In this document: piece after piece, positions 5,883 through 46,796 of the stretch
How the letters are laid out: each line of letters starts with the position of its first letter
Position numbering within the stretch: position 1 is the stretch's first letter
The notes under the pieces: generated by a model
Seen by the model: only the letters and a program-made list of their open reading frames with translations
What the model was told of the DNA's origin: nothing
Databases searched by the model: none
Virus record (IMG/VR): IMGVR_UViG_3300014656_000032
Span: 1-58,866 of that record
DNA from: a virus
Lineage: Duplodnaviria; Caudoviricetes
Length of the DNA stretch: 58,866 nt
Strand: one strand, 5' to 3'
Program-made: the position numbers and the translations under genes

Positions 5883-6224
5883 CTACACCTCCCTTATCCT
5901 CACCGGATATAGCGCCTCGACCTGTTTCTTTTTCATGATATAGATCGGCGTCCTCATGCCCTTGACATCAACGTACTCATAAGTGCCGTCGATATAAACG
6001 ACCAGGAAATCGGCACGATAGGTTATTCCGCCCGGTAGATCGAACACCGGCTGCCTATGGAAGTGGCTGACAATCCCCGCTTCCTGTTTCGTTTTCAGAT
6101 CGATGTAGAAATCAGCCTCCTTTCTCGAGTCAAAATTGATCCCGTCCACCCTTGTCCTCTGCGAGTTGTATTTGCTCCGCGGCTTCACTCCGTCCAATGA
6201 TCCGATCTCGTTCTTTGGCCTCAT
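5883..6224 (-). CDS. DUF1064-family PD-(D/E)xK nuclease
   Basis: SKYN..T.VDGI.FDSRKEA; YRADF; DVKGMRT..Y..KKK. Confidence 0.88.
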   Translation of the reverse strand: MRPKNEIGSLDGVKPRSKYNSQRTRVDGINFDSRKEADFYIDLKTKQEAGIVSHFHRQPVFDLPGGITYRADFLVVYIDGTYEYVDVKGMRTPIYIMKKKQVEALYPVRIREV

Positions 6225-10419: not shown

Positions 10420-10524
10420 TTACTTCTGCACTTCGCGAATGATCTTCACCAACCACCGATACCATGATACCGATCTCGGCTCCTTGCGCCTGTCGATCCC
10501 ACGTTTTTCCTTGCGCCTGTCCAT
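10420..10524 (-). CDS. 34-aa basic peptide with tandem DRRKE motifs
   Basis: GAGGAGG SD; MDRRKEKRGIDRRKEPRSVSWYRWLVKIIREVQK fills the gap between the MTase and the helicase. Confidence 0.5.
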   Translation of the reverse strand: MDRRKEKRGIDRRKEPRSVSWYRWLVKIIREVQK

Positions 10525-10534
10525 GGCATCCTCC

Positions 10535-11506
10535 TCAGAACAGCTTCAACTGCCGGGTTTCGCGCTCTATGCGCCTCGCTGCGATTTCACAGTATTCCTC
10601 GCTTATTTCTATTCCGATCCAACGGCGGTTGAGGCGTTCGCAGGCGATGGCGGTGGTGCCTGAACCTATGAATGGGTCCAACACAGTATCGCCAAGAATA
10701 GAGGCTGTCTCAACTATCCTCATGATGAGAGTCACCGGCTTCGGTGTTTCGTGGGAATCGACTTTGGCATTATAGAAATTGATGTCGTTCCACACGTCCG
10801 TGTGTCCCATTGGGAGATTGAAAGTGTAGCGAAGATCCTCATATTCCTTGCGAAGATCCTCATATTCCTTGCGAAGATACTCATAATTCAAATGCGCTCG
10901 TATTGTGTTATATTGTTCTTCTGTCGGGAAATTAAGACCAAGAAGCCAGTTACGGACGCATCCAGTCATCCTACCTGTCCTTGATGGAAATAGCGCGGCT
11001 ATAGAATTGTTGCTCACGCCAGCGTGGTTAAATTCAGCACGTAGGTATTTCGCCATAGGATTTATTTTTTGGTATTTTTCGCTCAGTTGTTTAGCTCCGG
11101 TCCTGTCTTCAAACGTATAGAACTGTAAGTATTCTGTTGCTTTGGGGTAAGACCTCATCGCACCTATAGAACACCGGCCAGCAATCGAACCGAGTCCTTT
11201 GTCAATGATTATCATCTGCTTATGTCTGTAGCTTGTTTTCTCCTCGAGCATGGTGTGAATTTTCGCTAGTTCAGAGAAAACCATATGAAAAAACCACAGT
11301 GTTGCATTATCTTTCGATGCCTTCTCTGTAGCCTGAAATATGCTTACTATCCATTTGTGATACCCGGGTATTCTGTCCCAATCCGCGACCCCAATGTTAT
11401 ATAGTGGGTCCGCGATAACCAAGTCCACCGGCTCAAGCTGCGGCATGATCTCAAGGCAGTCGCAGTGGAAAAGCTTGCCCAGGGCTGTCTCATAGTATGG
11501 TTTCAT
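10535..11506 (-). CDS. Beta-class N6-adenine/N4-cytosine DNA methyltransferase with HTH-like insert
   Basis: IADPLY (DPPY-like), HETPKP, VLDPFIGSGTT, IGIEI; start at MKPYY with GGAGGG SD. Confidence 0.9.
   Translation of the reverse strand: MKPYYETALGKLFHCDCLEIMPQLEPVDLVIADPLYNIGVADWDRIPGYHKWIVSIFQATEKASKDNATLWFFHMVFSELAKIHTMLEEKTSYRHKQMIIIDKGLGSIAGRCSIGAMRSYPKATEYLQFYTFEDRTGAKQLSEKYQKINPMAKYLRAEFNHAGVSNNSIAALFPSRTGRMTGCVRNWLLGLNFPTEEQYNTIRAHLNYEYLRKEYEDLRKEYEDLRYTFNLPMGHTDVWNDINFYNAKVDSHETPKPVTLIMRIVETASILGDTVLDPFIGSGTTAIACERLNRRWIGIEISEEYCEIAARRIERETRQLKLF
10829..10885. repeat. 21-bp coding tandem repeat (LRKEYED heptads)
   Basis: GCGAAGATCCTCATATTCCTT x2 plus a partial third copy. Confidence 0.9.
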
Positions 11507-11562
11507 AGATTCACCCTCCCTGTTCTTGTTTGCCCCCATGCGACTTCCCAAATGTACATTTC

Positions 11563-11907
11563 CTAACGCTCATATCCGGGGCCGTCCCATGACGCCGGCA
11601 TGTGTCGGTTTGGATGAATGATCCGAGCCCACTTTTCCGGCTCGTCTTCGTCCATGACATGAAGATTGTCGCCAGCCAAACACCACCCGCTTTCATGGCC
11701 ATCAGGTGGTGATCCTGTCCCATCTGGTAACATCTCTCCTCCAACCTCCCATGAATCATACCTGACCACATACGGCAGTCCATGAAAGAGCCCGAGAATC
11801 CAAGAGCCGTCCTTCGGTGCGGGCCCGTCTTGCCATGCTCCCGCAGCCATCGAGTCGATTAGTTGGTCAACGGCAGCTTTGTAAACTCGTGCCTCTTCGC
11901 TTGTCAT
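11563..11907 (-). CDS. Hypothetical protein (DUF551-like pattern)
   Basis: WQDGPAPKDGSWIL...EPEKWA; AAGGAG SD. Confidence 0.7.
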   Translation of the reverse strand: MTSEEARVYKAAVDQLIDSMAAGAWQDGPAPKDGSWILGLFHGLPYVVRYDSWEVGGEMLPDGTGSPPDGHESGWCLAGDNLHVMDEDEPEKWARIIHPNRHMPASWDGPGYER

Positions 11908-11925
11908 CGTCGTATCTCCTTTATC

Positions 11926-13278
11926 CTAAAATAGTTTCAACTGCCGGGTTTCGCGCTCTATGCGCCTTGCTGCCATCCGGCAATACTCCTCCGACAACTC
12001 GATCCCAACGAATTTTCTGTCATGCCGGTACGCCACCAGGCCCGTAGTGCCGCTGCCAAAGAATGGATCTAAAACAACTCCGGTGGTTTTGGGACATCCG
12101 GCAAGGATACAAGGTTCTATCAACTTGGGTGGAAATGTGGCAAAATGGGATTCTCGGAATCCCATTGGGTTCACATCGATACCCACCATCTCATCACCGC
12201 AGAAGATCATTCCATGCGGTTCGGATATGGATTGAAAGAACATGTCTGTGTTTCGATAGTTTCTATATTCTACAAGATCACCGACAGCAGCATGGAAAGA
12301 TTCGTTTGCCTTAATTCCACTTCCAGCCGGCGCAGTTTTCGGTGTAATACCACGGCCTTTCATGTGAGTGAATCCCTTGCTTATTGTCTGGTTGCCAGGA
12401 CCACCGTCTGCCAATTTGTGCTCCTCGCTTCGTCCACGGGCATAGCGTCTATGAGAATCCGGTGACGCCTTGACCTGTATGGCTCCCATATCAAATCGAT
12501 AGTTCTGATTCTTTGCCAGAAGAAAGACATACTCAAGGGTAGATGTTGGGCGATCTTTCACGCTTTCGGGCATCGCAGATCGTTTCACCCATGGCATTGC
12601 AGAGCGGAGATACCACCCATCGGCTTGCAGGGCGAAGGCCACACGCCAGGGGATACCGATCAGGTCTTTTGGTTTAAGCCCACTCTTGGCAAGGTCGGAC
12701 TTGTTGCCCCGATTCAGTTTATATGCGCCCGCGTCTTTTAGTTTGGCGTGACCATCTAAGGAGTCGTCACCACCGCCAGGATTAAAACAAGAGCCTTTGC
12801 CAGACGCATACGAGTCCCCAATGACCACCCAGATGCAGCCATCATCCCTCAGCACCCTTTTGACCTCCCTGAATATCTCCACCATGTGCTCGACGTACAA
12901 TTCAGGGGTCGGCTCCAGTCCAAGAGAACCACGCCAGGCACCGCAAAGCCGGCAGAATTGGCCTTGGGACGGTGACGGAACCATTGAATCAAGCGTTTCT
13001 CGATATTTCTCTGTAACTTGAACCTTCCTTCCGTCGTTGTGAAGCCCTGTTTTATCTGATATCGGTATGACGCGCCTCAGCTTTTCTTCTCCCCACTCGT
13101 GATTGCATGCCGAATCGCCATCCCATACCTGCGACTCGGTGCTGTAATCTCGGAGTCCCCAATAGGGCGGGGATGTGACACAGGTGTTGATGCTACCGTC
13201 CGGTAGCGATTGCAATACGGTGTGGACATTCCCGTGGAATATTTGCCCGGCATCAGTATCAAAGTACGGCGTTATCAT
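11926..13278 (-). CDS. Beta-class N4-cytosine/N6-adenine DNA methyltransferase
   Basis: VTSPPYWGLRDY, LKPKDLIGIPWRVAFALQADGWYLR, HFATFP, VLDPFFGSGTTG. Confidence 0.95.
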   Translation of the reverse strand: MITPYFDTDAGQIFHGNVHTVLQSLPDGSINTCVTSPPYWGLRDYSTESQVWDGDSACNHEWGEEKLRRVIPISDKTGLHNDGRKVQVTEKYRETLDSMVPSPSQGQFCRLCGAWRGSLGLEPTPELYVEHMVEIFREVKRVLRDDGCIWVVIGDSYASGKGSCFNPGGGDDSLDGHAKLKDAGAYKLNRGNKSDLAKSGLKPKDLIGIPWRVAFALQADGWYLRSAMPWVKRSAMPESVKDRPTSTLEYVFLLAKNQNYRFDMGAIQVKASPDSHRRYARGRSEEHKLADGGPGNQTISKGFTHMKGRGITPKTAPAGSGIKANESFHAAVGDLVEYRNYRNTDMFFQSISEPHGMIFCGDEMVGIDVNPMGFRESHFATFPPKLIEPCILAGCPKTTGVVLDPFFGSGTTGLVAYRHDRKFVGIELSEEYCRMAARRIERETRQLKLF

Positions 13279-16954: not shown

Positions 16955-17913
16955 CGGTTACAGCGGTTACAAATGAATACGGTATTAGAGACGTGGACCT
17001 GGCAGGACTCCGTGACGCATACGGGGTGTCGGATGAGAGAATCCGGGCGGTGTGTGAACAGTACCGGGATCTCATCGTAACCGATCCGTCAGATAAGGAT
17101 CAGGCGGCCATTGTCCACGAGGCGAGGCTAGAACTCAAAAGAGCCCGCATCAAGATCGTGAAGGTCCACAAACAAATCAAGGAGGATGCCCTGGCCTATT
17201 GCCGGGCGTGCGACGGAGAGAAGAACCGCCTTGTCGGCCCGTTGGCCGAAGAGGAAAAGCGGCTGGAGGCAGAGGAACAGAAACACATAGATTACATCAA
17301 AGAGCAGGCAAGACTCGCGGAAGAAGCTGCCCGTGCGATTATCGATGGCAGAATCGCAGAGTTGGTGAAGTACGGCGTCAGCATGCCGTACATGGACCTC
17401 GCAGTGATGAGCAATGAAGAATACTGCGATACCCTTGCTCGTGCCGAATCCGAACATACGAAGCGGCTTGCCGAAGAGGTTGAAAGAGAAGCGGTTCGGC
17501 AGGCTGAAGATGCTCGTCTCCAGAAAGAACGAGCGGAACAAGCAGAACGGCAACGCCAGCTGGACGCAGAGTTGGCGGCTTTCCTGGCCGAGCGGAAGGC
17601 GTTTGAACAGGAAAAGGCGGAGGCCGAAGCCAAGATCAAGGCAGAAGAGGATGCCAAGGCCGCAGCCGAAGCCGCGGCGCGTGCTCAGATTGAACGTGAC
17701 GAGCAGAAGGCCAAGGACAAGGCACGGCAGAAAGCATTGAAGCCGGACAGGAAAGCACTGACACAATACGTTGACGATCTGGCAACCGCATTTGCAAACA
17801 TACCCGAGCCAACACTTGAGCATGCGGAATCCAGAATGATATGCAAGAGCGTGGTAGCATTCATCCTGTCTGCACTGGCCCAAGCGAAATCAACAGTGGA
17901 GTCCTATACCTGA
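16945..17913 (+). CDS. Coiled-coil protein (DUF1351-like)
   Basis: EARLELKRARIKI...K.IKEDAL; long E/A/K/R-rich helix; typical neighbour of recombination genes. Confidence 0.7.
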   Translation: MQVAVTAVTNEYGIRDVDLAGLRDAYGVSDERIRAVCEQYRDLIVTDPSDKDQAAIVHEARLELKRARIKIVKVHKQIKEDALAYCRACDGEKNRLVGPLAEEEKRLEAEEQKHIDYIKEQARLAEEAARAIIDGRIAELVKYGVSMPYMDLAVMSNEEYCDTLARAESEHTKRLAEEVEREAVRQAEDARLQKERAEQAERQRQLDAELAAFLAERKAFEQEKAEAEAKIKAEEDAKAAAEAAARAQIERDEQKAKDKARQKALKPDRKALTQYVDDLATAFANIPEPTLEHAESRMICKSVVAFILSALAQAKSTVESYT

Positions 17914-18341
17914 TGCACACCTTCTACTGCAACCCGAAAGACGGCAACCTGAACTTGGAACACCCTGTGGCGTTCCGCGAAGCCGTTAAACTCCTTAGGC
18001 GCCGTAGGCACGTGATCGAAATCAGGGAATACACCGATCGCAGATCTCTCGGCGCCAACGCCTACTATTGGGCGGTGGTGATAGCACATTTCATGGAAGA
18101 GACGGGCCTGGTGGACAGCCAGAGCAACCGAGAATATATGCACTACGATGTACTTGGGCAGGAACTTAGAATGGTTGATGACGAACTCAGGCCCGGCAAA
18201 CAGCGTATGGCACAGACGCACACCATGACTGCAAGCGAATTCTGGAAGTACATTCGTCGGTGTGAACTACTGTTTCACGACTTTTTCAACGGCTCGTTCC
18301 CGCCGCCCAGGAGTCTCGGGTATGATACGGCCAAACCCTAA
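17913..18341 (+). CDS. NinB/YbcN-like recombination accessory protein
   Basis: RRSLGANAYYWAVV...HY...THTMTASEFWKYI. Confidence 0.75.
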   Translation: MHTFYCNPKDGNLNLEHPVAFREAVKLLRRRRHVIEIREYTDRRSLGANAYYWAVVIAHFMEETGLVDSQSNREYMHYDVLGQELRMVDDELRPGKQRMAQTHTMTASEFWKYIRRCELLFHDFFNGSFPPPRSLGYDTAKP

Positions 18342-18633
18342 ACTAACCACGATCCGAGCCACCCCCTACCGGATGTGGCTCCGAACTCAGAAGTGTGTGT
18401 GCTGTGGCAGGTTCGCGGTTCCTGGAGAACTCGACGTAGTTCCGATGCACCACGGAGGCGGCATGGCAACCAAGGGCGATGACGATGACGCGCTGCCTGG
18501 CTGTGTCTGGTGTCATGCCCGTGAACATGCTGCTCCGCAAGGGTTTTGGAGTGGTGTTCTCTCTGATACGGGACTCACCCGGGACGATCTGGTTCAACAA
18601 CATAGGAAGTGGTACAAGGAGGAAACCGAATGA
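18322..18633 (+). CDS. HNH-like zinc-binding nuclease (DUF968/DUF1364-like)
   Basis: Y..WLR...CVCCG...HH.GGM..K.DD..ALPGC..CH...H. Confidence 0.8.
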   Translation: MIRPNPKLTTIRATPYRMWLRTQKCVCCGRFAVPGELDVVPMHHGGGMATKGDDDDALPGCVWCHAREHAAPQGFWSGVLSDTGLTRDDLVQQHRKWYKEETE

Positions 18634-18842: not shown

Positions 18843-19561
18843 GTAAAACATTCAGACTGACGCTGTGCGAAAGGTGCTATGACAGGGTTCCGGCGAACCG
18901 ACTCACGGGGATACTACGTGATCCGGGGCATCCAGAGTATGATGAGGATTGGGCCTGTCATATGTGCGGGAATGAAGATGGCAATCGCTCGTACATTGAG
19001 ATCCTCACTGACATGGAGTTTGTTATTGGGCTGATGTTTACTTCTTTGGCGGACATCCTACAGATGCAGACTACACAATATACCACTTTCACTGATTTCG
19101 ATAACGGCATTCCCGAAAGGGTGCGCAAACTGTGCGCGAACTGGCGGCGGAGAATTGAGACGACTTCTCGGAGCAGTTTCGCAAGTATTGCGAGGCTGGT
19201 TCCGGTGATGGAAGCGACGATATGGCCCGCGCTTGAGGATAAGGAGGACAAAATGAAGGCACTTGCATATCGCAACTACGTACCAGAACAAGGCGGTTAT
19301 CTCTGCTCTGCTTGTGTTGAGCGAGATCAAAAGCAGTTTGATTATCCGCACCTGTTTTTTCGCACGACAATGCCAGAAAAAGTTGACGAAAAGGTACGGT
19401 GCGCGTGGTGTGGATACTGGGTTGGTGGGCATGACGCAAAGTGTGCGGCGGAACGAATTGCTGCCATGCTTGATAGAAGGTTTGGGCGGAGAGAGAAAAA
19501 CAAACGGATTCACCGCCCACGGAAGCGCGGCCCGAATCGAACGGGAAACAATGGAGGGTAG
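18839..19561 (+). CDS. Cys-rich hypothetical protein; probably two zinc-finger genes fused (second start at 19253)
   Basis: Four CxxC motifs; internal AAGGAGG-N5-ATG in frame. Confidence 0.65.
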   Translation: MSKTFRLTLCERCYDRVPANRLTGILRDPGHPEYDEDWACHMCGNEDGNRSYIEILTDMEFVIGLMFTSLADILQMQTTQYTTFTDFDNGIPERVRKLCANWRRRIETTSRSSFASIARLVPVMEATIWPALEDKEDKMKALAYRNYVPEQGGYLCSACVERDQKQFDYPHLFFRTTMPEKVDEKVRCAWCGYWVGGHDAKCAAERIAAMLDRRFGRREKNKRIHRPRKRGPNRTGNNGG

Positions 19562-19641
19562 GCCCCTCCGCTCAGAAAGCCCGGTTATGGGCTGTGCTTC
19601 CGATATTCTGCAAATCCTAATCGATCAAAAGGAGACGTATA

Positions 19642-19938
19642 ATGGACATACACAGGAGCAAAGAGGAAGTAGCTATTAATGACACACAGTCAGTTATCGC
19701 GGCACTGGAGACATTGCACGACAAGAGTGACAAGATGAGCAAATTGATCTTAGAAATCGAGGGCCGGCTGAAGATGGTAGTTGGGGATCAAATCCAAAAC
19801 CCCCCACATGGTACAAGAGGGGTAGGGAAAATAGAAGAAGCTGTCTGCCCATTGGCTCATTCCATGCGATCGGTAGCCTACAAAATGGAAAACCAAATTT
19901 TACAACTGGAATCTTTACTGTCGAGGCTTCAACTGTAA
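19642..19938 (+). CDS. Hypothetical helical protein
   Basis: AAGGAG SD; 98 aa. Confidence 0.7.
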   Translation: MDIHRSKEEVAINDTQSVIAALETLHDKSDKMSKLILEIEGRLKMVVGDQIQNPPHGTRGVGKIEEAVCPLAHSMRSVAYKMENQILQLESLLSRLQL

Positions 19939-20095
19939 CCACGCCCGCCCACTGACGGACAAGGGCTGAGGCGTCCAGGATGTCTCGGGCGTGTATAACC
20001 ATAGTACCGGGGGCGGATTAAACCGGCTGAGGGGCCAATGGAGTGTTCTGGAGAAACCCCCGGCGCTTATCACAGATGGGCAAGGAGAATGAGCT

Positions 20096-20347
20096 ATGAC
20101 AAAAGGGATGAGCGATGTAAGCGTAAGTGTAGCGCTGGAGGGCGTGCAGAATATCAGAGAAGTACTTGTCACAGTCAGCACATATACGCGAGAAGACAAC
20201 GGAAAGGTCGCAGCTTTGTTGATGATAGATTATAACGATGGGAGTACCTGCGCATGGATACATATGGACGAGACGGCGTTTGTGAGCCTGAAAAATTCTA
20301 TTGTATCGGCATGTGACAAGTACTTCGGTGATAAGTACCCGAGATAA
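20096..20347 (+). CDS. Hypothetical protein
   Basis: AAGGAG upstream; 83 aa. Confidence 0.6.
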   Translation: MTKGMSDVSVSVALEGVQNIREVLVTVSTYTREDNGKVAALLMIDYNDGSTCAWIHMDETAFVSLKNSIVSACDKYFGDKYPR

Positions 20348-20359
20348 AAGGAGGCCCAA

Positions 20360-20542
20360 ATGAGCAAATCCAGAGTTTCATGGTCACAAAAAGATGGCAA
20401 GAAGGTATTTGCCCAAGATTGCGACGAAATCCATGTAACAGACGAAACATTAACCGTATTCCATAATGATGAAAAGAAAGTAATTAATCTTATGGGGATC
20501 AAAGATGTCACCTTCTACCCTAAATCTTCTCGTAAGTTGTAA
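20360..20542 (+). CDS. Hypothetical protein
   Basis: AAGGAGG SD; lies between 26-bp direct repeats. Confidence 0.7.
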   Translation: MSKSRVSWSQKDGKKVFAQDCDEIHVTDETLTVFHNDEKKVINLMGIKDVTFYPKSSRKL

Positions 20543-20717
20543 GGTTCTTTTGGACGAGACGGCGTTTGTGAGCCTGGACAAGAAGATCAGAATCTCCGTT
20601 GCCAAGAAGTTCAAGCTCCACGAAGATGCAATCACCCAGGGATTCTCATGGCAACATATGGAAAATAACAATTATTTTTCCACCTATTACACTGTTATCT
20701 GTACGGGAGTATGGGCA

Positions 20718-20888
20718 ATGAAGCGATTTAACATTGAGTGGGATAAGGAATACGGGCAAGACAAAAGAACCGGGTGGTCCGTCTGTATAGATGGTTCATT
20801 TGTAGCAAAACTCGAAAGGTATTTCTTGGTCGCATTGATAAAATCACTTTGGGTTTATTTTTATATTTGGGAGAAAGAATACAGATAA
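20718..20888 (+). CDS. Small AT-rich hypothetical protein with gene-cassette-like boundaries
   Basis: GGGAG SD; GTTATCT at 20694 upstream, complementary AGATAAC overlapping the stop. Confidence 0.65.
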   Translation: MKRFNIEWDKEYGQDKRTGWSVCIDGSFVAKLERYFLVALIKSLWVYFYIWEKEYR

Positions 20889-20913
20889 CAAGCGGGTAGA
20901 GTCGGACGCTAAT

Positions 20914-21036
20914 ATGACAGGTAGAGAACACGGCATCAAGAACGGGTGGTTTATGTATCCATTGTTATTTGATCCAACATGGAAAACGAAACTATGCCAA
21001 AATTTTGAACCAAAGTCGGGAGGGCGAAATGAATAA
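20914..21036 (+). pseudogene. Probable C-terminal fragment of a phage hypothetical protein
   Basis: HGIKNGWFMYPLLFDPTWKTKLCQNFEPK; no SD, abuts a truncated attC-like arm. Confidence 0.4.
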
Positions 21037-21370
21037 CAGAGGAGGCATATTAACTATCTTGGCTCGTGCAATACTCATTTTTGCAATAAGCTTCTGCTTG
21101 GTTGATATGTATCAAGACAGTGGCAGACAGTATGACAGGGTTAATCTTGATACGGTTCGTTATGTGAACGTTCCGGTGGACAACGAGACTCTTAGTGCCG
21201 CCCTCCTTGCCGAGGCCTTTAACATTGTTCCAACTATGGCAGGTATGTTTAACGGTATCACAGCCTTTAATCAAGATATAAGTGATTGGGATACATCGAG
21301 TGTTACAACTGTGTCAAATATGTTTCTCAATGCCGACGCAAGCAGAATGGTATTGAATAAGGCCCATTAA
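21029..21370 (+). CDS. Membrane-anchored protein with a single DUF285/BspA-type repeat
   Basis: GGAGGG SD; N-terminal TM segment; MAGMFNGITAFNQDISDWDTSSVTTVSNMF. Confidence 0.7.
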   Translation: MNNRGGILTILARAILIFAISFCLVDMYQDSGRQYDRVNLDTVRYVNVPVDNETLSAALLAEAFNIVPTMAGMFNGITAFNQDISDWDTSSVTTVSNMFLNADASRMVLNKAH

Positions 21371-21390
21371 CGTTCAGGAGATAAGAAAAA

Positions 21391-21630
21391 ATGAATAAAA
21401 CGAGAATACAGGACATTGTGGCCAGTTTAACGTTGGCTATCCATGCCGTCATAAAAGACGACAATCAGATTGGATTCGCTTTGTTTGTCTTTGACTTGAA
21501 AACCATGATGGCTCAATGTGTCACGAACGGAGATAGAAAACAAATCTTTGCTGCGGTTCGTGAGCAGATGGACAAGACAGAAAACGAGGCGAAGAATCCC
21601 CGCAACAATCCGTTTCATAATTTGCAGTAG
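21391..21630 (+). CDS. Hypothetical protein
   Basis: AGGAG SD; IGFALFVFD...VTNGDR. Confidence 0.7.
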   Translation: MNKTRIQDIVASLTLAIHAVIKDDNQIGFALFVFDLKTMMAQCVTNGDRKQIFAAVREQMDKTENEAKNPRNNPFHNLQ

Positions 21631-21722
21631 ATTCGACCAACTGACAAAGGAGGTAGAAGTAGCGGAGACATCTCCCGAGGACTGCTTGAGATAGGAAAGG
21701 CATACAAGGAGCGAATTGGCGT

Positions 21723-22778
21723 ATGGCAATCATAAATATGTTTAATCCGCTGACTCCGAACGAAATTTACCACGGAGACTCCAGAAATCTATTAAATAGA
21801 ATTGAGAAAGATTCAATTGCACTAAGTGTATGGTCTCCGCCTTATTTCGTTGGAAAAGAATATGAAAAAGATTTGGCATTTGACGATTGGAAAAACCTAT
21901 TAAGAGATGTTATTGCTTTGCACTTTCCAATTATCAAGCCTGGTGGATTTTTGGTGATCAATATTGCCGATATTTTATGCTTTAGAGATGAAGGTATGCC
22001 AAAAATTATGGCCGAAAACATCTCCCGAAGAAAAATCTCGCTTTCCAAAGAAGATATATTGGCAGTCAAGAAAAAACATCCTGACTGGAACAGATACAAA
22101 CTCGCAGAACACTTCGGATGTAGTGAACAAACTATAGATAGAAGGCTTAATGGAAATAATATAAGGGGTGGGAAATACCAATCACAAACCAGAGTTTTCT
22201 TAGTTGGAGGAATAATAGAAGAGGCAGCTTTATCCGCTGGATTCTACTTGTATGATCGTAGGATATGGGTAAAAGATGCAGCATGGGAAAATTCACGGTG
22301 GCACACTATATCCTATCGTTCTGTAGACGAATCTGAATATCTTTACATTTTTTGGAAACCGGGAATTACTAAGGTTGATCGTTCAAGGTTATCAAAGGAA
22401 GAATGGGTAAATTGGGGTTCAAGAGGTGTATGGGAAATACCATCTGTTCGTAGCAACGCAGATCACGACTCTAAGTTTCCTGTTGAACTTCCAAGAAGGG
22501 CGATAAAGCTTTTTACTGAACCGGGTGAAATTGTTCTTGATTGTTTTATGGGGAGTGGAACAACTGCGGTGGCAGCCATTAGTGAAGGAAGACAATATAT
22601 TGGAATTGAGAAAGAGGAAAAATCAGTAGCTATCGCAAAAAAGGCTACAGATTCAGTCAATACATATACAAAGGAACCTGTGCAAATGGATTTAATAATC
22701 AAGGAGTTAGAGGCATCACGGAGAATCATCCTACTCCACCGGCACCACCTTATTACAAGAAAGGGAGGCGAGGAATGA
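21723..22778 (+). CDS. AT-rich beta-class N4-cytosine/N6-adenine DNA methyltransferase with internal HTH
   Basis: VWSPPYF, WNRYKLAEHFGCSEQTIDRRL, H.SKFPVELP, VLDCFMGSGTT. Confidence 0.93.
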   Translation: MAIINMFNPLTPNEIYHGDSRNLLNRIEKDSIALSVWSPPYFVGKEYEKDLAFDDWKNLLRDVIALHFPIIKPGGFLVINIADILCFRDEGMPKIMAENISRRKISLSKEDILAVKKKHPDWNRYKLAEHFGCSEQTIDRRLNGNNIRGGKYQSQTRVFLVGGIIEEAALSAGFYLYDRRIWVKDAAWENSRWHTISYRSVDESEYLYIFWKPGITKVDRSRLSKEEWVNWGSRGVWEIPSVRSNADHDSKFPVELPRRAIKLFTEPGEIVLDCFMGSGTTAVAAISEGRQYIGIEKEEKSVAIAKKATDSVNTYTKEPVQMDLIIKELEASRRIILLHRHHLITRKGGEE

Positions 22779-22957
22779 GTGACTACCGGGAGCACGAACT
22801 GAAAACATGGCCTAGCTATGACGAGTGCCAAGGGGATGCGGGGAGTGAGCAGCCCAAAGTAACGCTGATGAATATGCCAGATGAGGTGACGGATCTCATC
22901 CTCAAAGGGGAACAGGCAGAATTGGGGGAGCAGCCCACCTGCCAGGAGGTGGACTGA
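22775..22957 (+). CDS. Short hypothetical protein or gene remnant
   Basis: GGAGG SD, ATGA overlap; N-terminal HELKTWP resembles the start of ASCH/DUF3850 proteins. Confidence 0.4.
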   Translation: MSDYREHELKTWPSYDECQGDAGSEQPKVTLMNMPDEVTDLILKGEQAELGEQPTCQEVD

Positions 22958-22993
22958 CGCCACTCGGCTAATCGTTATACAAGGAGAATTGAT

Positions 22994-23194
22994 ATGAAAA
23001 GATATGCGGCAGTAATAAGAATATCCGAACAGTGCTCACCAGACGATTTCGAATGGAACACATATATCAAAGAGATTCAGCCCGGTACTCAAATAGCCGA
23101 TCTGCTTGATTGGCAAAAAACAATCTTTAAGCACATACAAAGTATTAGGGATGGCGAGTTTTTCTATCCAATGATGATACAACCAATGGAATAA
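22994..23194 (+). CDS. Small AT-rich hypothetical protein with gene-cassette-like boundaries
   Basis: GTTATAC then AAGGAG SD; attC-like left arm just after the stop. Confidence 0.7.
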   Translation: MKRYAAVIRISEQCSPDDFEWNTYIKEIQPGTQIADLLDWQKTIFKHIQSIRDGEFFYPMMIQPME

Positions 23195-23242
23195 ATGTCT
23201 ACCCAGCGGATCGACCTGGCGCCGAAAGTTGGAGTTGAAAAC

Positions 23243-23521
23243 ATGAAGGCTAAAGCGCAGATTGATTTTGAAAATATTGTTAATGATTTAGAGTCGTTGC
23301 TGTCTGATGAAATGGGAGTTGAAGAAGAAAAAGGGGTAGGCCGTTTCATATCGCGAACTGAAGCACTGCGGATTGCCAGAGAAATTCTTGAGATGGCTGA
23401 GCGAGAACGTCTTGTATTCGCTGAATATGAGGCCGCACGAGGTATTCAGTTGGAGAATCATCCTACTCCACCGGCACCTGCACATCCGTCCTGTTTGCCA
23501 CAAACCCCACCAAGTCGCTGA
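23243..23521 (+). CDS. Hypothetical protein (3' end runs into the converging late gene)
   Basis: GGAG SD before MKAKAQ; within ORF 23195..23521. Confidence 0.55.
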   Translation: MKAKAQIDFENIVNDLESLLSDEMGVEEEKGVGRFISRTEALRIAREILEMAERERLVFAEYEAARGIQLENHPTPPAPAHPSCLPQTPPSR

Positions 23522-23720
23522 AGACACGGCCGATGGGCGATAGGGGGTTTCCGCTGCCTTCATTACGAACCCGGATTTCCGTATCGCCCTGTCGCAGATA
23601 CACTTCGCCGTGGGGGACGTTTGTGATCTTATATTGCTGGCCGTCCGGCATAATGATTGTCGGATTGGCAGAACATCCAAGCGCAAACAGGATAAGGATT
23701 GTCCGGGTTATCTTCATCAT
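23463..23720 (-). CDS. Small lipoprotein, candidate spanin component
   Basis: MMKITRTILILFALG-C lipobox-like signal; last gene of the lysis cassette. Confidence 0.6.
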   Translation of the reverse strand: MMKITRTILILFALGCSANPTIIMPDGQQYKITNVPHGEVYLRQGDTEIRVRNEGSGNPLSPIGRVFSDLVGFVANRTDVQVPVE

Positions 23721-24151
23721 CCACCCCCCGGCAAGGCTGACGAAAGCCCCCCTTCGTGCACGGCCTTGTACCAGTACATCGCCCGAAACCCGCACATCCC
23801 ATCTTCCAGCAGTATGCGATACAGCAGCGCGTCCGCGTAGTCCCTTACCCACCACGGAACCGCTTCAACCCTCAGCAGGCGGTACAGGGTGTCATGAACC
23901 AAACTCCCGCGTATGGACGACTTCGTGTCGATTGTAAAGTTGCTCGGGCCGTTCCACCAAAAACCCATAAAGATAATCAGGGTGCCAGTCGGACATAGAT
24001 GAACACGGCCCCTGCTCTCGGGGTTAAGATCCAGCACGAGCCCCTTGATGTTCGTCTGGATGTTGTAGTCTTTCAGTAGGACGTACTCGTTGTTTATCAG
24101 ACGCCACCGCTTCAATATCCGGTAGCATATCCCGTGATGTTCGCGTGTCAT
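23717..24151 (-). CDS. DUF1353-like protein
   Basis: GF.WNGPS...SLVHDTLY...R..AD.L....L.EDGM...RA..WY.AV...G. Confidence 0.75.
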   Translation of the reverse strand: MTREHHGICYRILKRWRLINNEYVLLKDYNIQTNIKGLVLDLNPESRGRVHLCPTGTLIIFMGFWWNGPSNFTIDTKSSIRGSLVHDTLYRLLRVEAVPWWVRDYADALLYRILLEDGMCGFRAMYWYKAVHEGGLSSALPGGG

Positions 24152-24564
24152 CCCCATAGTCCCGTCCTCATCGCGTTTGCCAGTTCCGTTGCCCGATGTA
24201 TTTTTACGTCTGCGGCCCACTTGCTATCGAGCAGTTCGTCAGCAGCCAATGGGTAATTCTCTTCTCTCAGGGCAGCAAGAAACTTGGTAAAACGCCGTAG
24301 TTTCGTCAGGCCCAGGTTGAACAGCAGCATGATCACCACGTCACGGCGTGCCGGGTTGAGATGATCCAGGTGCAGCTTCTCGAAATCGTCCCTTGCGCTC
24401 TTGGTGTCGTGCCAGAACAGTATGTCGGCCACCTCGCGGGGGATAGGGCTGCCGGCCAGGAAAGCGTGGCCGTACCCGCCTGTAGGGACGCCCTTGGTGT
24501 CGAGATATACCGTGTCGCTATATCCCTCATGGCGCTTGAGTATTTCCGAGAACGATTCTGTCAT
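24148..24564 (-). CDS. Endolysin, T4-lysozyme-like (GH24)
   Basis: HEGYSDTVYLDTKGVPTGGYGH with E-x8-D-x5-T triad; FNLG; AADELLDSKWA. Confidence 0.93.
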   Translation of the reverse strand: MTESFSEILKRHEGYSDTVYLDTKGVPTGGYGHAFLAGSPIPREVADILFWHDTKSARDDFEKLHLDHLNPARRDVVIMLLFNLGLTKLRRFTKFLAALREENYPLAADELLDSKWAADVKIHRATELANAMRTGLWG

Positions 24565-25598: not shown

Positions 25599-25901
25599 TC
25601 ATTTCGTATTCACCGTGAACGAGTTGAACACATCCACTATATCGGTCACCCGGTACTCAAGCCCGAGTTTATCAATCCGCAACATGACTTCCGACTGAGT
25701 TTTGAACTCTTCGATCTTATGAGCAGCGGACGTGACGTTGCTGTCCGTTCCGTCTATCAGTGCGAGTACTTTTTCGCCGTCATGTACTAGACGTATCGCC
25801 TGACCGGTTGCGTTGTTGTACCCGTAAGTCTCGTCCCGCGTGACTTCTGCAAATGCAGGAATTGCTATTGCCAATACCAGAATACATGTAAAAGTTCTCA
25901 T
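25599..25901 (-). CDS. Hypothetical protein with signal peptide
   Basis: [19 protein letters not shown]; ATGA overlap. Confidence 0.65.
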
Positions 25902-27319
25902 GGACATTGATTCCCGTCTGTTATGATCCATCCGTTCGTTACAAGTGCCGCCCTTGCTGTTGCTGCTGCCCCTGCTGAGTAACAGGCACTCCCGCCATGG
26001 AATGTGATGTTAGGCGGCTCGGTCTGTGCTTCCCAGCCGATGTAGAGTGCATCTAAGTTTGCTGTTGACAGTCCAGAACTTAGAAACATGCTCGCTGCTG
26101 TTGTAATATCTGCAATGTCCCACCCGGCGATATCTTGGTTAAAAGCTGCGGCATTCCTGAATGTCTGGCTTACGTCAGTTAGGGCAGATGTAGTCCAAGC
26201 ACCTATATTTTGGTTAAAGGCTATGGCATTGTAAAACATATTTGCCATAGTTATAACACTCGATGTAATCCAAGTACTTATATCTTGGTTAAAGGCTATG
26301 GCAGATTGGAACATAGCTGACATATCTGTAACCTTGGACGTGTCCCAACCACCAATATCTTGGTTAAAGGCTGTGGCAGATTGGAACATAGCTGACATAT
26401 CTGTAACCTTGGACGTGTCCCAACCACCAATATCTTGGTTAAAGGCTGTGGCACTGTTAAACACACCTGCCATATTTGTAACACTTGATGTGACCCAAGC
26501 ACCTATATCTTGGTTAAAGACTGTGGCAACGTTAAACATACTTGACATATTTGTAACACTTGATGTGACCCAAGCACCTATATTTTGGTTAAAGGCCGCG
26601 GCAGATCGGAACATTGTTGACATATCTGTAACCTTGGACGTGTCCCACCCGCCGATATCTTGGTTAAAGGCTGTGGCACTGTTAAACATACTTGCCATAT
26701 TTGTAACACTTGATGTGATCCAAGCACCTATATTTTGGTTAAAGGCTATGGCAGCTCGGAACATTGTTGACATATCTGTAACACTCGATGTGTCCCAACT
26801 GTTCATGCTCGGAACGGTAGTTAGCGATGAGCAGGATCGGAACGCTGCGGACATATTCGTTATTCCAGATGTATCTAGAATATCAGTAGCGGAGACGGTT
26901 AAGTTTGTGCATCCGTAAAAATAACCGTTCAGGTTTCCAAGTATTAGCGTCCCCCAATTGCTGATATCTTTTATCAGTGTCTTGTCGCCAACATTGTTGA
27001 ACCGCCACCCCTCAATAGTGCCTGTGATTGTGATTTCGTAGGTTCCAGCCCCGGCATATGAGCATACCTTATCCGCATCGTCCCAGGTAGTAACAGCCCC
27101 GCCTCCTGTTCCGCCAACACCGCAATCGATGTTGAAATCATACGTCCCGCCGTTGTAGATGGGAGGTGTGAACGTATCGGCTCCGGCTACGGTTACGGTG
27201 AAGACGAATGCGGGCGGTCCTTGATTCGTTAGCTGCATCAACAGCCCTCGCCGAGTGGCCGCGATTGACGTGGCGCACACTAACGACAGTATAAGCACAA
27301 CCCATAGTGTCTTTCTCAT
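25898..27319 (-). CDS. DUF285/BspA-family surface repeat protein with signal peptide
   Basis: [20 protein letters not shown]; about 9 repeats of [20 protein letters not shown]; C-terminal AR..LV..GWIITDG. Confidence 0.92.
26110..26800. repeat. 75-bp coding tandem repeats (25-aa DUF285 units)
   Basis: TTGGTTAAAGGC-type core recurs every 75 bp. Confidence 0.9.
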
Positions 27320-28239
27320 TAGTTTGTATCCGTGCATCCGGCAGTTGCTCTCATGCTCCAAGTGTCTGCCGCGTAGTAGGTAACAACCACAAAGTCAGTT
27401 GCCAGGGTGCAAGTCACCCCGTCGCCCTGCGCCAGCGCGGTGCCGTTGAGTATAATCGTGTCCTCGGTGCCGGAGTTGTCAGGGTTGAACACCGTGTTCC
27501 CCGCGGCCATTACTTCGAGTGTAAAGTTAGCACCGGCCACCGCAGGACACATCGTCCAAGTCTGAGCGGCGGTGCTGTAGAAATTATAGCCGAGACATTG
27601 AGTGGCCGTCATCGTGTGGCCGTCAGCGTCAGAATAAGTTCCTATCGCACCCGACACGACGCCCGAGAACGTGCCCGTGGTGCCCGTTACCGCTGCTGGT
27701 GTGTTTCCGCCAAGAGTGCCGTCGAGGTTTGTGGCCGCCACCGCTGTCAAATTAAGCGATGTCGCCCAACTTGGCGCTGCGGCCCCATTGGCCTGCAACA
27801 CATAGTTGGCGGTGCCGGCACCCAGCCACGCGTAAGCATTATCAGCAGTCCCGTATGGAAGGCCGCCGTTCGTTTCAACCTGGCTGCCAAGAGACGTGAG
27901 CCCGGCAGATATGGACTGCACGCCCGTAGTCGTGGTGTTCCATACCGCACCGGTGCCGAGCGCACCCATGGCCTGCTCTGCACTCAACGTTCCGTTGGCT
28001 GTTTGTGTGATGTATGTCGCATCCGTGGGGGCATAGCTGAGAGCCTCGAACTTATCCCTGATGGCGTTCTTGGTAGCCGATCTGAGAGATCCGTTCCATG
28101 TAGTAGCGTTATATGCCGTATCGTCCGGAGGCGGTTGCCCGATTGAACCACCAGGTAACGAGCCGCCAGTAACAGACTGCCCGCGGGCGGTTGTGGCGAA
28201 CGCCAGAAGCAAAGTCATGAGCAATGTCAGTGTTTTCAC
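27319..28239 (-). CDS. G/T/A-rich fibre-like protein with signal peptide
   Basis: [20 protein letters not shown]; [20 protein letters not shown]; [17 protein letters not shown]. Confidence 0.7.
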
Positions 28240-44745: not shown

Positions 44746-46796
44746 CTAACAAGTCTCCTTTTTGTATGGTGTATGATAACACCATCGAATCTATGCCCTA
44801 GATCCTCGTCCGACTTACTGTAGAGGATAATACTGATGTTTCTGCCGCTGCCGGATATCGACAGTGACGGACTGGCAACAACGTCGCTGTCGTAATAGAA
44901 TTCATCCCATCCAACGAGATTCCAAAACCCGCCCAACCCCTGGATCGGTACAGTCTCATTGATGTGCGTCTGTATGTCCGAGTCTCCATAGCTGAACATG
45001 GCGCTCAACCTGACTTCCGTGTAGCCGGAAGAGTCCATTTCAATAATCGCTCTGCGGTATGTTTTCCTGATGGTGGGCGATCTGGAGTTGTTGAACGCTG
45101 TAAACATGAACGCCTCGATATCTTCTCCGTCGAAGCTCGATCCTTTATCGGCCTGGTAAACCATTCCCTGGTCAGACCCGAAAAAGATCACGTCCTTACC
45201 CGTAGAATCCTCGCCTGTCACAACGCACGCCACTTTGTCAGGATATAGAAACGGGCAGAAATGGTATTCGATACCATCTCTGCCAACCACGAGCGTCATG
45301 CAGATGCCGGTTCCGTCGCTTCCATAAAGCCTGTACTGGTTCTTGTGCTTATACACCGAAGACGCTACGACTACTGTTCTCATATTGTCTATGAGAGATT
45401 GGATCTTACGGCTGATAGCCCCGCTGTTGAAATTGCCGTATTGATCCGTTCGTACAGTGTCAACAATGCCCTGGTCGTCAAGCGCATAGGCGTTTCCAAG
45501 CGCCTGCATGGTGTACGGAATGGCTCCCATCGTGTTATCTATCGGATCCAGAAAGAAGGTGTCAACTCCGTCTCCCTGAAGTTGGAAGCACGAATTCCTG
45601 GCGTTTATCAGGAGTGTTTCTGCAACAACCAGGTATCCTGTTATGTTGTCTCCGAGCCCTATCTCCGAAGCCCCGACCACAGGCTCCCACTGGTAGGGAG
45701 TTCCAACCCCGGAGTTCTGAGACGATCCTCTGAACGAGAAGAAAAGCTGTTGCTTGTAGCACTTGACATGAAGCGGCTTGTCTACGGTCATCCCGGTGTT
45801 TATCGGAACGTAAACGGTCCCGTCGAACTCGAACCCCCTGTTTACTCCGTCGCACCCGTATATCCTGCGGGTATCCGTGCTGCCTGTGAAGTTGAACACG
45901 TCGAATTCATACCGCCCGCCTGCGGCGATCGTGATGGCAGTAGCCAGGCTCGTCGATGTTGCCTTTGTAACGCCGCCCACCTGGATGTCGTTTGTCGCAT
46001 CGAACGTGCCTGTGATTGTAGACAGTATCAACCTGCCCGCCGCGTCACCGCCCGCCCACGTGCCGGATTCCAACACGACCCGGCTGGCAACCGCGGTTGC
46101 CCCGCTCACAAGTTGCGTGATGGCGTTTCCGTCCGATATCTCTCCGGTTCCAGCACCGAAACTGATCTCATGCAGAAGCGCAACCGCCGTCCATCCGCTT
46201 GTGGACTGTTTGTATATCGCCCCGAATGTCCCGGCGGCATTGTCGATAAAGCAGTACAAAACCCCGTTCAGGATAGCCAGCCCGCGAACAGCACCGCTTC
46301 CTGTCGGCGCTGCTATATCGGCCCTGTATACATCGGCTGTAAGATTAAGGGCTGCCGCGTGAAGTTGCGAAGTCGTCTGTCCGTTTTCTACCTGGGCGGC
46401 TGTAAACGTGCCCTTGGCAACCCCTCCTACCTTGAACACCTCGTTTGCCGTCAATGATCCCGACAGTTTCGTCACGCAGATATAATCATCTCCGACGACA
46501 ATCACCACGGCCGTCTCGCCGCTGTCTGCACCGGTTATGGTGTTGCCGACTGCCGGACCCCCGGCTGTGAACGTGCACGGACAATAGTAGTAAGAAGCTG
46601 ACGACGGCGACGTTCTTCCGTCGAACCGCTCGTAGCCGTCTATGCGTTCATACCCGCCCTCCACGCCGGGAACGTAATTATTGGCGGCCAGCAGCTTGCC
46701 GGGATCCATTATGATGGCCGGAGATTCCAAGTCAATACCGCCCCTGAACCGAGTGTATTCCGTATTGACTTTCACATTATGAAGCATCGTCGTCAT
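44742..46796 (-). CDS. Tail tube/nozzle (head-stabilisation-type) protein
   Basis: GGIDL..P, GGYERIDGYERFDG; beta-rich; follows the adaptor. Confidence 0.75.
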   Translation of the reverse strand: MTTMLHNVKVNTEYTRFRGGIDLESPAIIMDPGKLLAANNYVPGVEGGYERIDGYERFDGRTSPSSASYYYCPCTFTAGGPAVGNTITGADSGETAVVIVVGDDYICVTKLSGSLTANEVFKVGGVAKGTFTAAQVENGQTTSQLHAAALNLTADVYRADIAAPTGSGAVRGLAILNGVLYCFIDNAAGTFGAIYKQSTSGWTAVALLHEISFGAGTGEISDGNAITQLVSGATAVASRVVLESGTWAGGDAAGRLILSTITGTFDATNDIQVGGVTKATSTSLATAITIAAGGRYEFDVFNFTGSTDTRRIYGCDGVNRGFEFDGTVYVPINTGMTVDKPLHVKCYKQQLFFSFRGSSQNSGVGTPYQWEPVVGASEIGLGDNITGYLVVAETLLINARNSCFQLQGDGVDTFFLDPIDNTMGAIPYTMQALGNAYALDDQGIVDTVRTDQYGNFNSGAISRKIQSLIDNMRTVVVASSVYKHKNQYRLYGSDGTGICMTLVVGRDGIEYHFCPFLYPDKVACVVTGEDSTGKDVIFFGSDQGMVYQADKGSSFDGEDIEAFMFTAFNNSRSPTIRKTYRRAIIEMDSSGYTEVRLSAMFSYGDSDIQTHINETVPIQGLGGFWNLVGWDEFYYDSDVVASPSLSISGSGRNISIILYSKSDEDLGHRFDGVIIHHTKRRLVR

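Follow-up and report, generated by a model that had tools for sequence, protein, structure and literature searches.

Probable decayed remains of integron-type gene cassettes in the early operon of an uncultivated tailed phage that lacks an integron integrase

The stretch of DNA analyzed here (the window) is a whole IMG/VR record, IMGVR_UViG_3300014656_000032, of 58,866 bases from an uncultivated tailed phage (Duplodnaviria, Caudoviricetes), rated 100% complete by CheckV. A low-GC block at the end of its early operon very probably holds what decay has left of two or more integron-type gene cassettes, which share one family of attC recombination sites, a family still intact in two comparison contigs, L006 and L112, and which would no longer be excisable. 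These and the other L numbers used below are labels of comparison contigs or loci taken from metagenome and viral data. A reading made from the letters of the window alone, hereafter the sequence-only reading, had proposed decayed cassettes with attC-like half-sites in a phage lacking an integron integrase. The proposal was upheld by comparison with L006 and L112, by the complementarity of the cassette boundaries and by the ranks of the half-sites in profile searches.

Integron crossover takes place between the G and the TT of the R' box. The first six bases of an inserted cassette therefore belong to its own attC and complement its own R'' box, not that of the preceding site. The two candidate cassettes and their sites are arranged in the window as follows.

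20663-20700, + strand: site a, a possible collapsed attC, with AAATAAC at 20663-20669 and GTTATCT at 20694-20700
20718-20888, + strand: gene of cassette 1, 56 amino acids (aa), GC 0.37; its family aligns from the ATG at 20718
20883-20913, + strand: site b, a 5' attC half-site, with R'' AGATAAC at 20883-20889, then AAGCG and the L'' arm GGTAGAGTCGGACGC (20890-20909)
22945-22980, + strand: site c, a 3' attC half-site (L' arm and spacer), with GACGCCACTCGGCTAATC at 22956-22973, then R' GTTATAC at 22974-22980 opening cassette 2
22994-23194, + strand: gene of cassette 2, 66 aa, GC 0.38
23197-23240, + strand: site d, a decayed attC, with R'' GTCTACC at 23197-23203, CAGCG at 23204-23208 and the L'' arm GATCGACCTGGCGCC at 23209-23223

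The last 7 nt of site a constitute the R' box that opens cassette 1 (G/TTATCT), and the stop codon TAA of the 56-aa gene lies at 20886-20888, inside AGATAAC. Site d continues with a loop, a 17-nt gap in place of the L' arm and an R' remnant, GTTGAAA, at 23234-23240; GTTGGAG stands at 23228-23234. All the strings quoted in the sequence-only reading were found where it had placed them. Cassette 1 would accordingly run from G/TTATCT through the 56-aa gene to the R'' box AGATAAC with AAGCG and an L'' arm, and cassette 2 from G/TTATAC through the 66-aa gene to the R'' box GTCTACC with CAGCG, an L'' arm and the R' remnant.

Two covariance models, R1 and R2, were built in this analysis as stand-ins for IntegronFinder. 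Using IntI1 of plasmid R100 (the annotation of which shows the qacEdelta1/sul1 arrangement) as the query, 80 genome loci with intI1-type genes were fetched. A strict structural scan of these loci gave 57 candidates, and 25 distinct sites were used for R1. The consensus of R1 comprised a bulge in addition to the R''/R' and L''/L' helices, with covariation at 12 of 18 pairs. In the control search of the 80 intI loci (760,343 nt in total), R1 found 129 sites at E ≤ 0.1, scoring 19.6-73 bits, 125 of them on the cassette strand. The intact sites of L006 and L112, seven in all, served to make the family-specific model R2.

L006 is a 1.7-kb metagenome fragment that opens with an exonuclease VIII gene of phage type (phrog_412, E 3e-46) and carries a homolog of the 66-aa gene (65 aa, 61% identity). 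Three co-oriented R1 matches were detected in it, the first (10.3 bits) ending 18 nt ahead of the start codon of the homolog, the second (22.5 bits) beginning 3 nt past its stop and the third (17.2 bits) 250 nt further on. A homolog flanked by full attC sites, which the sequence-only reading had set beforehand as a check on itself, was thus found. The GTTATAC and the AAGGAG that precede the gene in the window are identical in L006. L112 is a 15.2-kb contig (36% complete) with portal, protease-capsid, tail and tape-measure genes, in which R1 detected four sites (37, 16.5, 14.7, and 14.4 bits) that belong to the same sequence family and all have one orientation. Its cassettes code for a C5 DNA methyltransferase (phrog_363), a PAPS reductase (phrog_424) and a 227-aa protein. 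The array occupies 10433-12773 on the minus strand at the contig end (G001:C1:12903-15239 in the whole contig) and lies directly upstream of the head-tail adaptor and portal genes, with no terminase between. By these models, L006 (three sites) and L112 (four sites) both conform to the definition of a cluster of attC sites lacking an integron integrase (CALIN).

The intact sites of L006 and L112 were co-oriented with their genes, the stop codons lying in or beside R''. All seven folded with single-base bulges, mostly on the L'' arm. The bulged bases are the pair C and A in four of the seven sites, which we assume to correspond on the top strand to the canonical G and T of the recombining bottom strand. 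Site b of the window retains the CGG-A-CGC motif, and the window sites are without the partner arm needed for folding. The boundaries of the cassettes carried the footprint expected of integron crossover. In L006 and L112, the R' box of a site was the exact reverse complement of the R'' box of the next site in all five cases, as against agreement of just 4-7 of 7 positions between R'' and R' of the same site. A boundary of this kind was likewise found in the window, where GTTATCT and AGATAAC of cassette 1 are complementary at 7/7 positions and GTTATAC and GTCTACC of cassette 2 at 5/7; the GTATAAC expected for the latter is present in L006. The 56-aa and 66-aa genes are both short promoterless open reading frames (ORFs) co-oriented with their sites.

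The arms were also evaluated with profiles of the intact half-sites. A position weight matrix (PWM) of the 5' half was made from the first 30 nt of six intact L006 and L112 sites, with the window excluded, and was run over both strands of the window (117,674 positions). Position 23197 (site d, 22.4 bits) ranked first and position 20883 (site b, 14.3 bits) second. On 200 shuffled windows the maximum averaged 11.7 ± 2.5, and the second-best score stayed below 22.4 throughout. The arms thus stood out in the comparison with shuffled sequence, the other check that had been set in advance. With a gapped nhmmer profile of the 5' half, site b ranked first and site d second, and with a 3'-half profile, 22958-22979 (site c) ranked third in the window. 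For site a, proposed earlier as a collapsed site, only the end fared well: GTTATCT is the 7/7 complement described above, and the remainder was not borne out, having ranked 24,414 of 117,674 in the PWM search.

The mode of decay could be followed at two sites. An alignment of window positions 22940-23250 with positions 1040-1385 of L006 spans both borders of cassette 2, and in it the window is without 17 nt exactly at the L' arm of L006. The loss of one arm after the gene at 22994-23194 is thus directly apparent from the aligned sequences. A remnant site after the 66-aa gene, as the sequence-only reading had it, was retained; its assignment of GTTGGAG as the R' box was given up, GTTGAAA at 23234-23240 being the more likely by homology with L006. 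At site b, the R'', spacer, L'' arm and start of the loop align with site D of L112 (about 76% identity over about 34 nt, counted manually), and the two diverge at about 20913. The earlier claim that one attC arm had been lost therefore holds at both sites, through the 17-nt gap at the first and through a breakpoint after the L'' arm at about 20910-20913 at the second. The adjoining 40-aa gene at 20914-21036 corresponds, at 61% identity, to residues 33-68 of a protein of 88 aa encoded in another contig (L002:1559-1825). Since site b is joined to this truncated gene, the join removed both the second arm of the site and the first 32 codons of the neighboring gene.

As the window sites cannot fold into a hairpin, the cassettes would not be excisable by an integron integrase and their genes would be fixed. 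Neither R1 nor R2 found an intact attC in the window, as the sequence-only reading had stated, and no attC hairpin, an imperfect palindrome R''-L''...L'-R' of about 55-140 nt, was detectable by covariance model at 20400-23500. With no detectable site, the window falls outside the definition of a CALIN (at least two detectable attC without intI). It also falls outside that of a complete integron (intI with attI and Pc), searches of the complete 58,866-base record having given no match for the integron integrase (TIGR02249) or for tyrosine recombinases in general (PF00589). The absence of an integron integrase from the phage, claimed earlier, was confirmed by the former of these searches, and no integrase was found in the four viral records searched. 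To judge from these sites, the window holds putative remnants of cassettes, not functional cassettes.

Several observations weigh against the cassette interpretation. The best R1 score in the window was 8.9 bits (E 3.8), outside the region, and the best R2 score 9.7 bits (E 9.1), at 9940. None of the five heptamers of the window fitted the textbook GTTRRRY/RYYYAAC consensus; the R boxes of the family itself (GTTATAT, GTTAGCT, GTTATGT, and GTTATAC) deviate from GTTRRRY, with GTTA...TAAC as their constant part. The PWM score of site b was matched somewhere in 15.5% of the shuffled windows, and the nhmmer E-values of the half-sites were individually weak (0.7, 4.2, and 5.9). The arrays of L006 and L112 could lie in host DNA beside a prophage and be chromosomal, not phage-borne. 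Most homologs of the two genes stand outside cassettes, in ordinary phage surroundings (six of the seven loci for the 66-aa gene and all six for the 56-aa gene). Both small genes are mainly ordinary phage genes, and capture may have run from phage to cassette or the other way. The case for site b is maintained on account of its rank at a place specified beforehand together with the 7/7 complement.

Tests based on motifs alone gave results at the level of chance. Exact 7-mer inverted pairs spaced 100-400 nt apart numbered 1150, as compared with 1121 ± 33 in 30 shuffles. GTT-type inverted pairs in the region numbered 2 against 1.05 expected, with two or more in 28% of 200 shuffles. None of eight single-strand folds reached z ≤ -2, the small hairpin of site a having a z of -1.9. 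The strict structural scan of the window (RYYYAAC...GTTRRRY, at least 6/7 complementary, folded) found no site in the region and one poor candidate at 45003-45096. These results do not amount to a refutation, because the R boxes of the family are non-canonical and half-sites cannot fold; an initial reading of them as a refutation was dropped after comparison with the intact arrays. Two further candidates noted by eye were left without a claim, as the half-site profiles were silent on both. One was CATTAAC-GTTCAGG (21366-21378), possibly a collapsed site, which resembles the end of L112 site C, and the other a possible remnant upstream of the methyltransferase gene, GGCATACAAGGAG, which resembles GTTATACAAGGAG before gene 22994.

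The attC family is rare under exact patterns of stem and borders. A stem-pattern scan of viral contigs gave 60 loci, about the roughly estimated chance number, and among them R1 at E ≤ 0.006 found only L112 and one other contig (L111 and L135), with L141 at 15.5 bits (E 0.73). A second scan, for stem and borders, gave 30 loci, of which L112 alone folds as a site. The other contig, a 47.8-kb IMG/VR contig (G004:C1:32524-37823), has at least five GC-rich attC sites of up to 48 bits by R1 (L111 24-912 and L135 7982-8507). It carries an endolysin (phrog_181, E 1.5e-69) and a replication initiator, and its genes past the array (epimerase, dehydrogenase, acetyltransferase) have a bacterial look. The contig, in which no integron integrase was detected, may represent a prophage next to an attC cluster of the chromosome.

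Homology searches agreed with the gene calls at 20718-20888 and 22994-23194. The 56-aa gene gave 89 homolog clusters at E ≤ 1e-3, mostly of 50-90 aa and aligned from residue 1, with the conserved motif ..DYG..KRTGWS..DGS. The rival ORF of 112/127 aa that shares its stop matched itself alone. The 66-aa gene gave nine homologs at 57-72% identity, excluding the self match. Neither protein had a Pfam or PHROG family; in the Atlas, the 66-aa protein matched only viral hypothetical clusters, at under 0.9, and the 56-aa protein no cluster. Intact flanking attC sites were found at one of the seven fetched loci of the 66-aa homologs (L006), the best R1 score at the other six being 11.0 bits, and no attC adjoined a homolog of the 56-aa gene at six viral loci. 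With R2, nothing above 12.7 bits was obtained on the window and 12 homolog loci.

Three other observations concern these homologs. The contig L002, which looks temperate (RecT-like, YqaJ-like, and integrase genes), carries both the 88-aa family (1559-1825) and the 66-aa family (5998-6204); both are shared with the block of the window, and neither is flanked by attC in L002. Ahead of another 66-aa homolog stands GGCTAAC-AAGCT-GTTAAC (L003 about 575-600, L004 about 2733-2758), which may be a wholly collapsed attC-like site or chance. In L186, positions 1-160 hold repeated inverted words, GCGTAACG and CGTTACGC, that are iteron- or operator-like and give weak false matches to the attC models (13.8 bits); among viral homologs of the 56-aa gene the closest one lies 2.4 kb downstream of these words.

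The block ends the + strand early operon of the phage, which converges on the minus-strand late genes. A blastn search of the phage against 50,697 phage records gave no match, and scans of viral contigs with three single proteins revealed no relative of the phage backbone. The other features of the block and its surroundings are listed below.

17841-18341, + strand: NinB-like gene of the early operon
18262-18633, + strand: DUF968/HNH-like gene of the early operon, followed by several small genes
20265-20295, + strand: copy 1 of direct repeat D1 (31 nt), within an 83-aa gene at 20096-20347; 94% identical to 20551-20581
20360-20542, + strand: gene B, 60 aa, GC 0.37, between the two D1 copies
20548-20662, + strand: 3'-end remnant, homolog of gene 20096-20347, with D1 copy 2 at 20551-20581; outside the 56-aa gene
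20914-21036, + strand: truncated gene, 40 aa, marking the breakpoint beside site b
21029-21370, + strand: 113-aa protein with one DUF285 repeat unit and a hydrophobic N-terminus (PF03382, E 2.3e-11)
21391-21630, + strand: 79-aa gene, preceded by CATTAAC-GTTCAGG (21366-21378)
21723-22778, + strand: orphan N6/N4 DNA methyltransferase (PF01555, E 5e-40; phrog_67, E 9e-43), GC 0.39
22720-22746, + strand: copy 1 of direct repeat D3 (27 nt), 100% identical to 23452-23478
22775-22957, + strand: 60-aa gene with a backbone-like GC of 0.56
23243-23521, + strand: last gene of the + strand operon, 92 aa, with ATG at 23243 and a GGAG ribosome-binding site
23452-23478, + strand: copy 2 of D3, comprising the last 5 codons and stop of the lipoprotein gene and 11 nt downstream
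Late genes, minus strand: lipoprotein, DUF1353-like protein and endolysin (24148-24564)

The GC content of the 3.1-kb block (20348-23451) is 0.42, as compared with 0.53 for the genome. Both cassette genes (0.37-0.38), gene B and the methyltransferase gene are low in GC, and the pieces between them are not, the remnant of the homolog of gene 20096-20347 having 0.49 and the 60-aa gene at 22775-22957 having 0.56. Such alternation of low-GC pieces (gene B, the stretch from cassette 1 to the methyltransferase, and cassette 2) with backbone-like pieces points to several separate acquisitions. The description of the two genes as AT-rich, co-oriented and without obvious promoters was confirmed: five promoter-like sites were found on both strands of 19500-24000, against 7.8 expected, with a single weak one on the + strand.

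Neither gene B nor the 60-aa gene at 22775-22957 had a Pfam or PHROG match. Past D1, the protein similarity between gene 20096-20347 and the remnant goes on (DETAFVSL..I..S...K.F), and the D1 pair with the remnant after gene B is a module-junction scar. Gene 20096-20347 also contains a 22-nt inverted repeat, not exceeded in length by any other in the 5-kb region, whose arms (20152-20173 and 20312-20333) are 91% complementary and separated by 138 nt. The D3 pair brackets 732 bp, cassette 2 included, and looks like a recent rearrangement at the boundary of early and late genes. The last ~20 codons of the methyltransferase ORF pass out of frame through D3 copy 1. The 92-aa gene overlaps the 3' end of the lipoprotein gene by about 59 nt, the two being convergent; in L006, the ATG corresponding to 23195 opens a mere 15-codon frame within the attC. 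The lipoprotein gene is small, runs from 23463 to about 23716 on the minus strand and closes the group of lysis-side genes; its product, with the N-terminus MKITRTILILFALGCS, is possibly a spanin component. Elsewhere among the late genes, a 487-aa DUF285-repeat protein is encoded at 25898-27361 on the minus strand (PF03382, E 4e-102), to single repeats of which the 113-aa protein, a relative that resembles a fragment of it, is 50-63% identical.

The cassettes would first have been made and moved by an IntI-type integrase of a host, and would have entered the phage either by integrase action on its DNA or inside pieces recombined from another element. Arms would later have been lost by small deletions and illegitimate recombination. 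The fixed genes would be read through from the early promoter alongside the orphan methyltransferase, which most likely protects the phage DNA from restriction, to go by its counterparts in other phages. A host IntI may have acted on the DNA of this phage itself. The arm loss may have been selected ("fixed"), as it might stop excision or remove a hairpin that hinders read-through or replication, or may have been neutral decay.

The strongest alternative, which we regard as quite possible if somewhat short of probable, concerns the route of entry. The cassettes may have arrived ready-made, in part already decayed, in larger low-GC pieces through homologous or illegitimate recombination with a prophage, with a second phage or with an attC cluster of the host, with no insertion by an integrase and with neutral decay. 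It accounts for the low GC of the whole of 20348-23451, including gene B and the methyltransferase gene, which are not visibly cassettes, and for three junction scars (D1, D3, and the truncated 40-aa gene). There is no attI-like or intact site in the window, and the contigs with the attC family share no other tested protein with it. The 7/7 match of GTTATCT and AGATAAC keeps the bounds of a crossover, but it is expected either way and does not discriminate. The backbone-like pieces between the low-GC ones would, however, require at least three separate insertions.

A more far-reaching version of the cassette interpretation, in which a pool of cassettes circulates among phages, is moved by host integrases during infection, recruits phage genes and is later locked by arm loss, is offered tentatively and appears rather doubtful. 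It draws on the phage-type cargo of the attC family, namely C5 and N6/N4 methyltransferases, a PAPS reductase and small early proteins that have their other homologs in ordinary phage settings.

It is unlikely that sites b (20883-20913) and c (22945-22980) are one attC split by an insertion of ~2 kb that brought the truncated gene, the DUF285 fragment, the 79-aa gene, the methyltransferase gene and the 60-aa gene. The sequence-only reading had pointed out that GAGT-C-GG-A-CG of the first arm can pair with CG-CC-ACTC of the second, and the two bulged bases would be C and A, as in four of the seven intact sites. The duplex of 20883-20912 with 22950-22980, however, had an energy of -7.0 kcal/mol, whereas 5000 random pairs averaged -7.02 and 45% of them did as well, so the pairing is at chance and uninformative. 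Because the arms resemble one another throughout the family (..GGACGSC / GSCGCC..), a 5' half will pair with whichever 3' half it is set against. In the register of the family, the partner of site b should, by eye, have one more G. The junction at site b cuts the neighboring gene, as a deletion rather than an insertion would, and the 60-aa gene beside site c has the GC of the backbone.

Less credible still is that the hairpins of L006, L112 and the window are terminators, regulatory elements or packaging palindromes of the phages' own, unrelated to integrons. The cargo is phage-typical (phrog_363, phrog_424, and small proteins nearest to viral Atlas clusters), the R boxes are not GTTRRRY and the viral records searched had no integrase. 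Yet with a model made from bacterial attC sites only, the sites of L006 and L112 scored as high as 37 bits, complementarity was tied to the cassette (7/7 in five of five cases) with 4-7 of 7 positions agreeing within a site, and the sites were co-oriented with the genes, with stop codons in or beside R''. Chance co-occurrence of short GTTA/TAAC words and GC-rich stretches at the ends of short genes, with which the consensus, inverted-pair, fold and duplex tests and the lack of a covariance-model match in the region would agree, can largely be set aside in view of the first and second ranks of the pre-specified sites under a profile trained outside the window, the homology of a gene and both its borders to an intact cassette, the similarity of site b to L112 site D and the 7/7 complement of cassette 1.

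Loss of attC is known to turn a mobile cassette into a fixed gene in degenerate chromosomal integrons of bacteria, in CALINs and at the qacEdelta1 end, and the decay of attC in bacteria and plasmids usually follows loss of the integrase from the same element. The element in the window differs from these in being a virus without a trace of an integrase. Phage morons, on the other hand, carry their own promoter and terminator and no footprint of site-specific recombination. The block resembles moron and early-operon hot spots in its low-GC mosaic, its orphan methyltransferase and the junction scars D1 and D3, and differs from morons in that two of its genes carry remains of attC with the G/TT boundary.

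Arrays of attC in phages without an integrase are already known. Integron cassettes in phages were first documented in 2023 and appear rare: parts of integrons were found with standard detectors in 21 of 10,705 phage genomes, including 17 attC clusters without an integrase, and IntI1 recombined five of six phage attC sites (Qi et al., 2023; PMC9892861). The same paper reports methyltransferase cassettes in phages (N6_N4_Mtase is named), argues that these protect from restriction, and proposes contact with host integrons together with phage mosaicism as the origin (PMC9892861). The window is similar to these phage CALINs in its co-oriented promoterless genes, the absence of IntI and its orphan methyltransferase (PMC9892861). 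Unlike them, with at least two intact sites each and several sites recombined by IntI1 (PMC9892861), the window has no intact site and would be blank to standard detection. It also differs in being an uncultivated phage whose sites are recognizable only through a family intact in two contigs (compare PMC9892861). IntI is also reported to catalyze cassette insertion outside att sites (attG, "SALIN"), which offers a route for single cassettes without attI, expressed from a resident promoter (Loot et al., bioRxiv 10.1101/2022.09.11.507474). That work deals with bacterial chromosomes, where the inserted cassette keeps its full attC, whereas the window cassettes are without arms (Loot et al., bioRxiv 10.1101/2022.09.11.507474).

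A limited literature search gave no earlier description of attC sites surviving as decayed remnants in phages. What is added here is a fossil state of the cassette that is invisible to standard detectors, the tracing of its origin through an intact sister cassette (L006), and an attC family common to three otherwise unrelated phage-like sequences with phage-type cargo. The window is a concrete case of a mobile cassette becoming a fixed phage gene, and the phage-derived look of the cargo bears on the question of where cassettes originate. The orphan methyltransferase and the two small proteins are candidates for phage counter-defence. Fossil cassettes of this kind suggest that uptake by phages is commoner than counts of intact sites imply, and if a cassette pool does circulate among phages, surveys of intact attC would greatly underestimate the traffic between integrons and phages.

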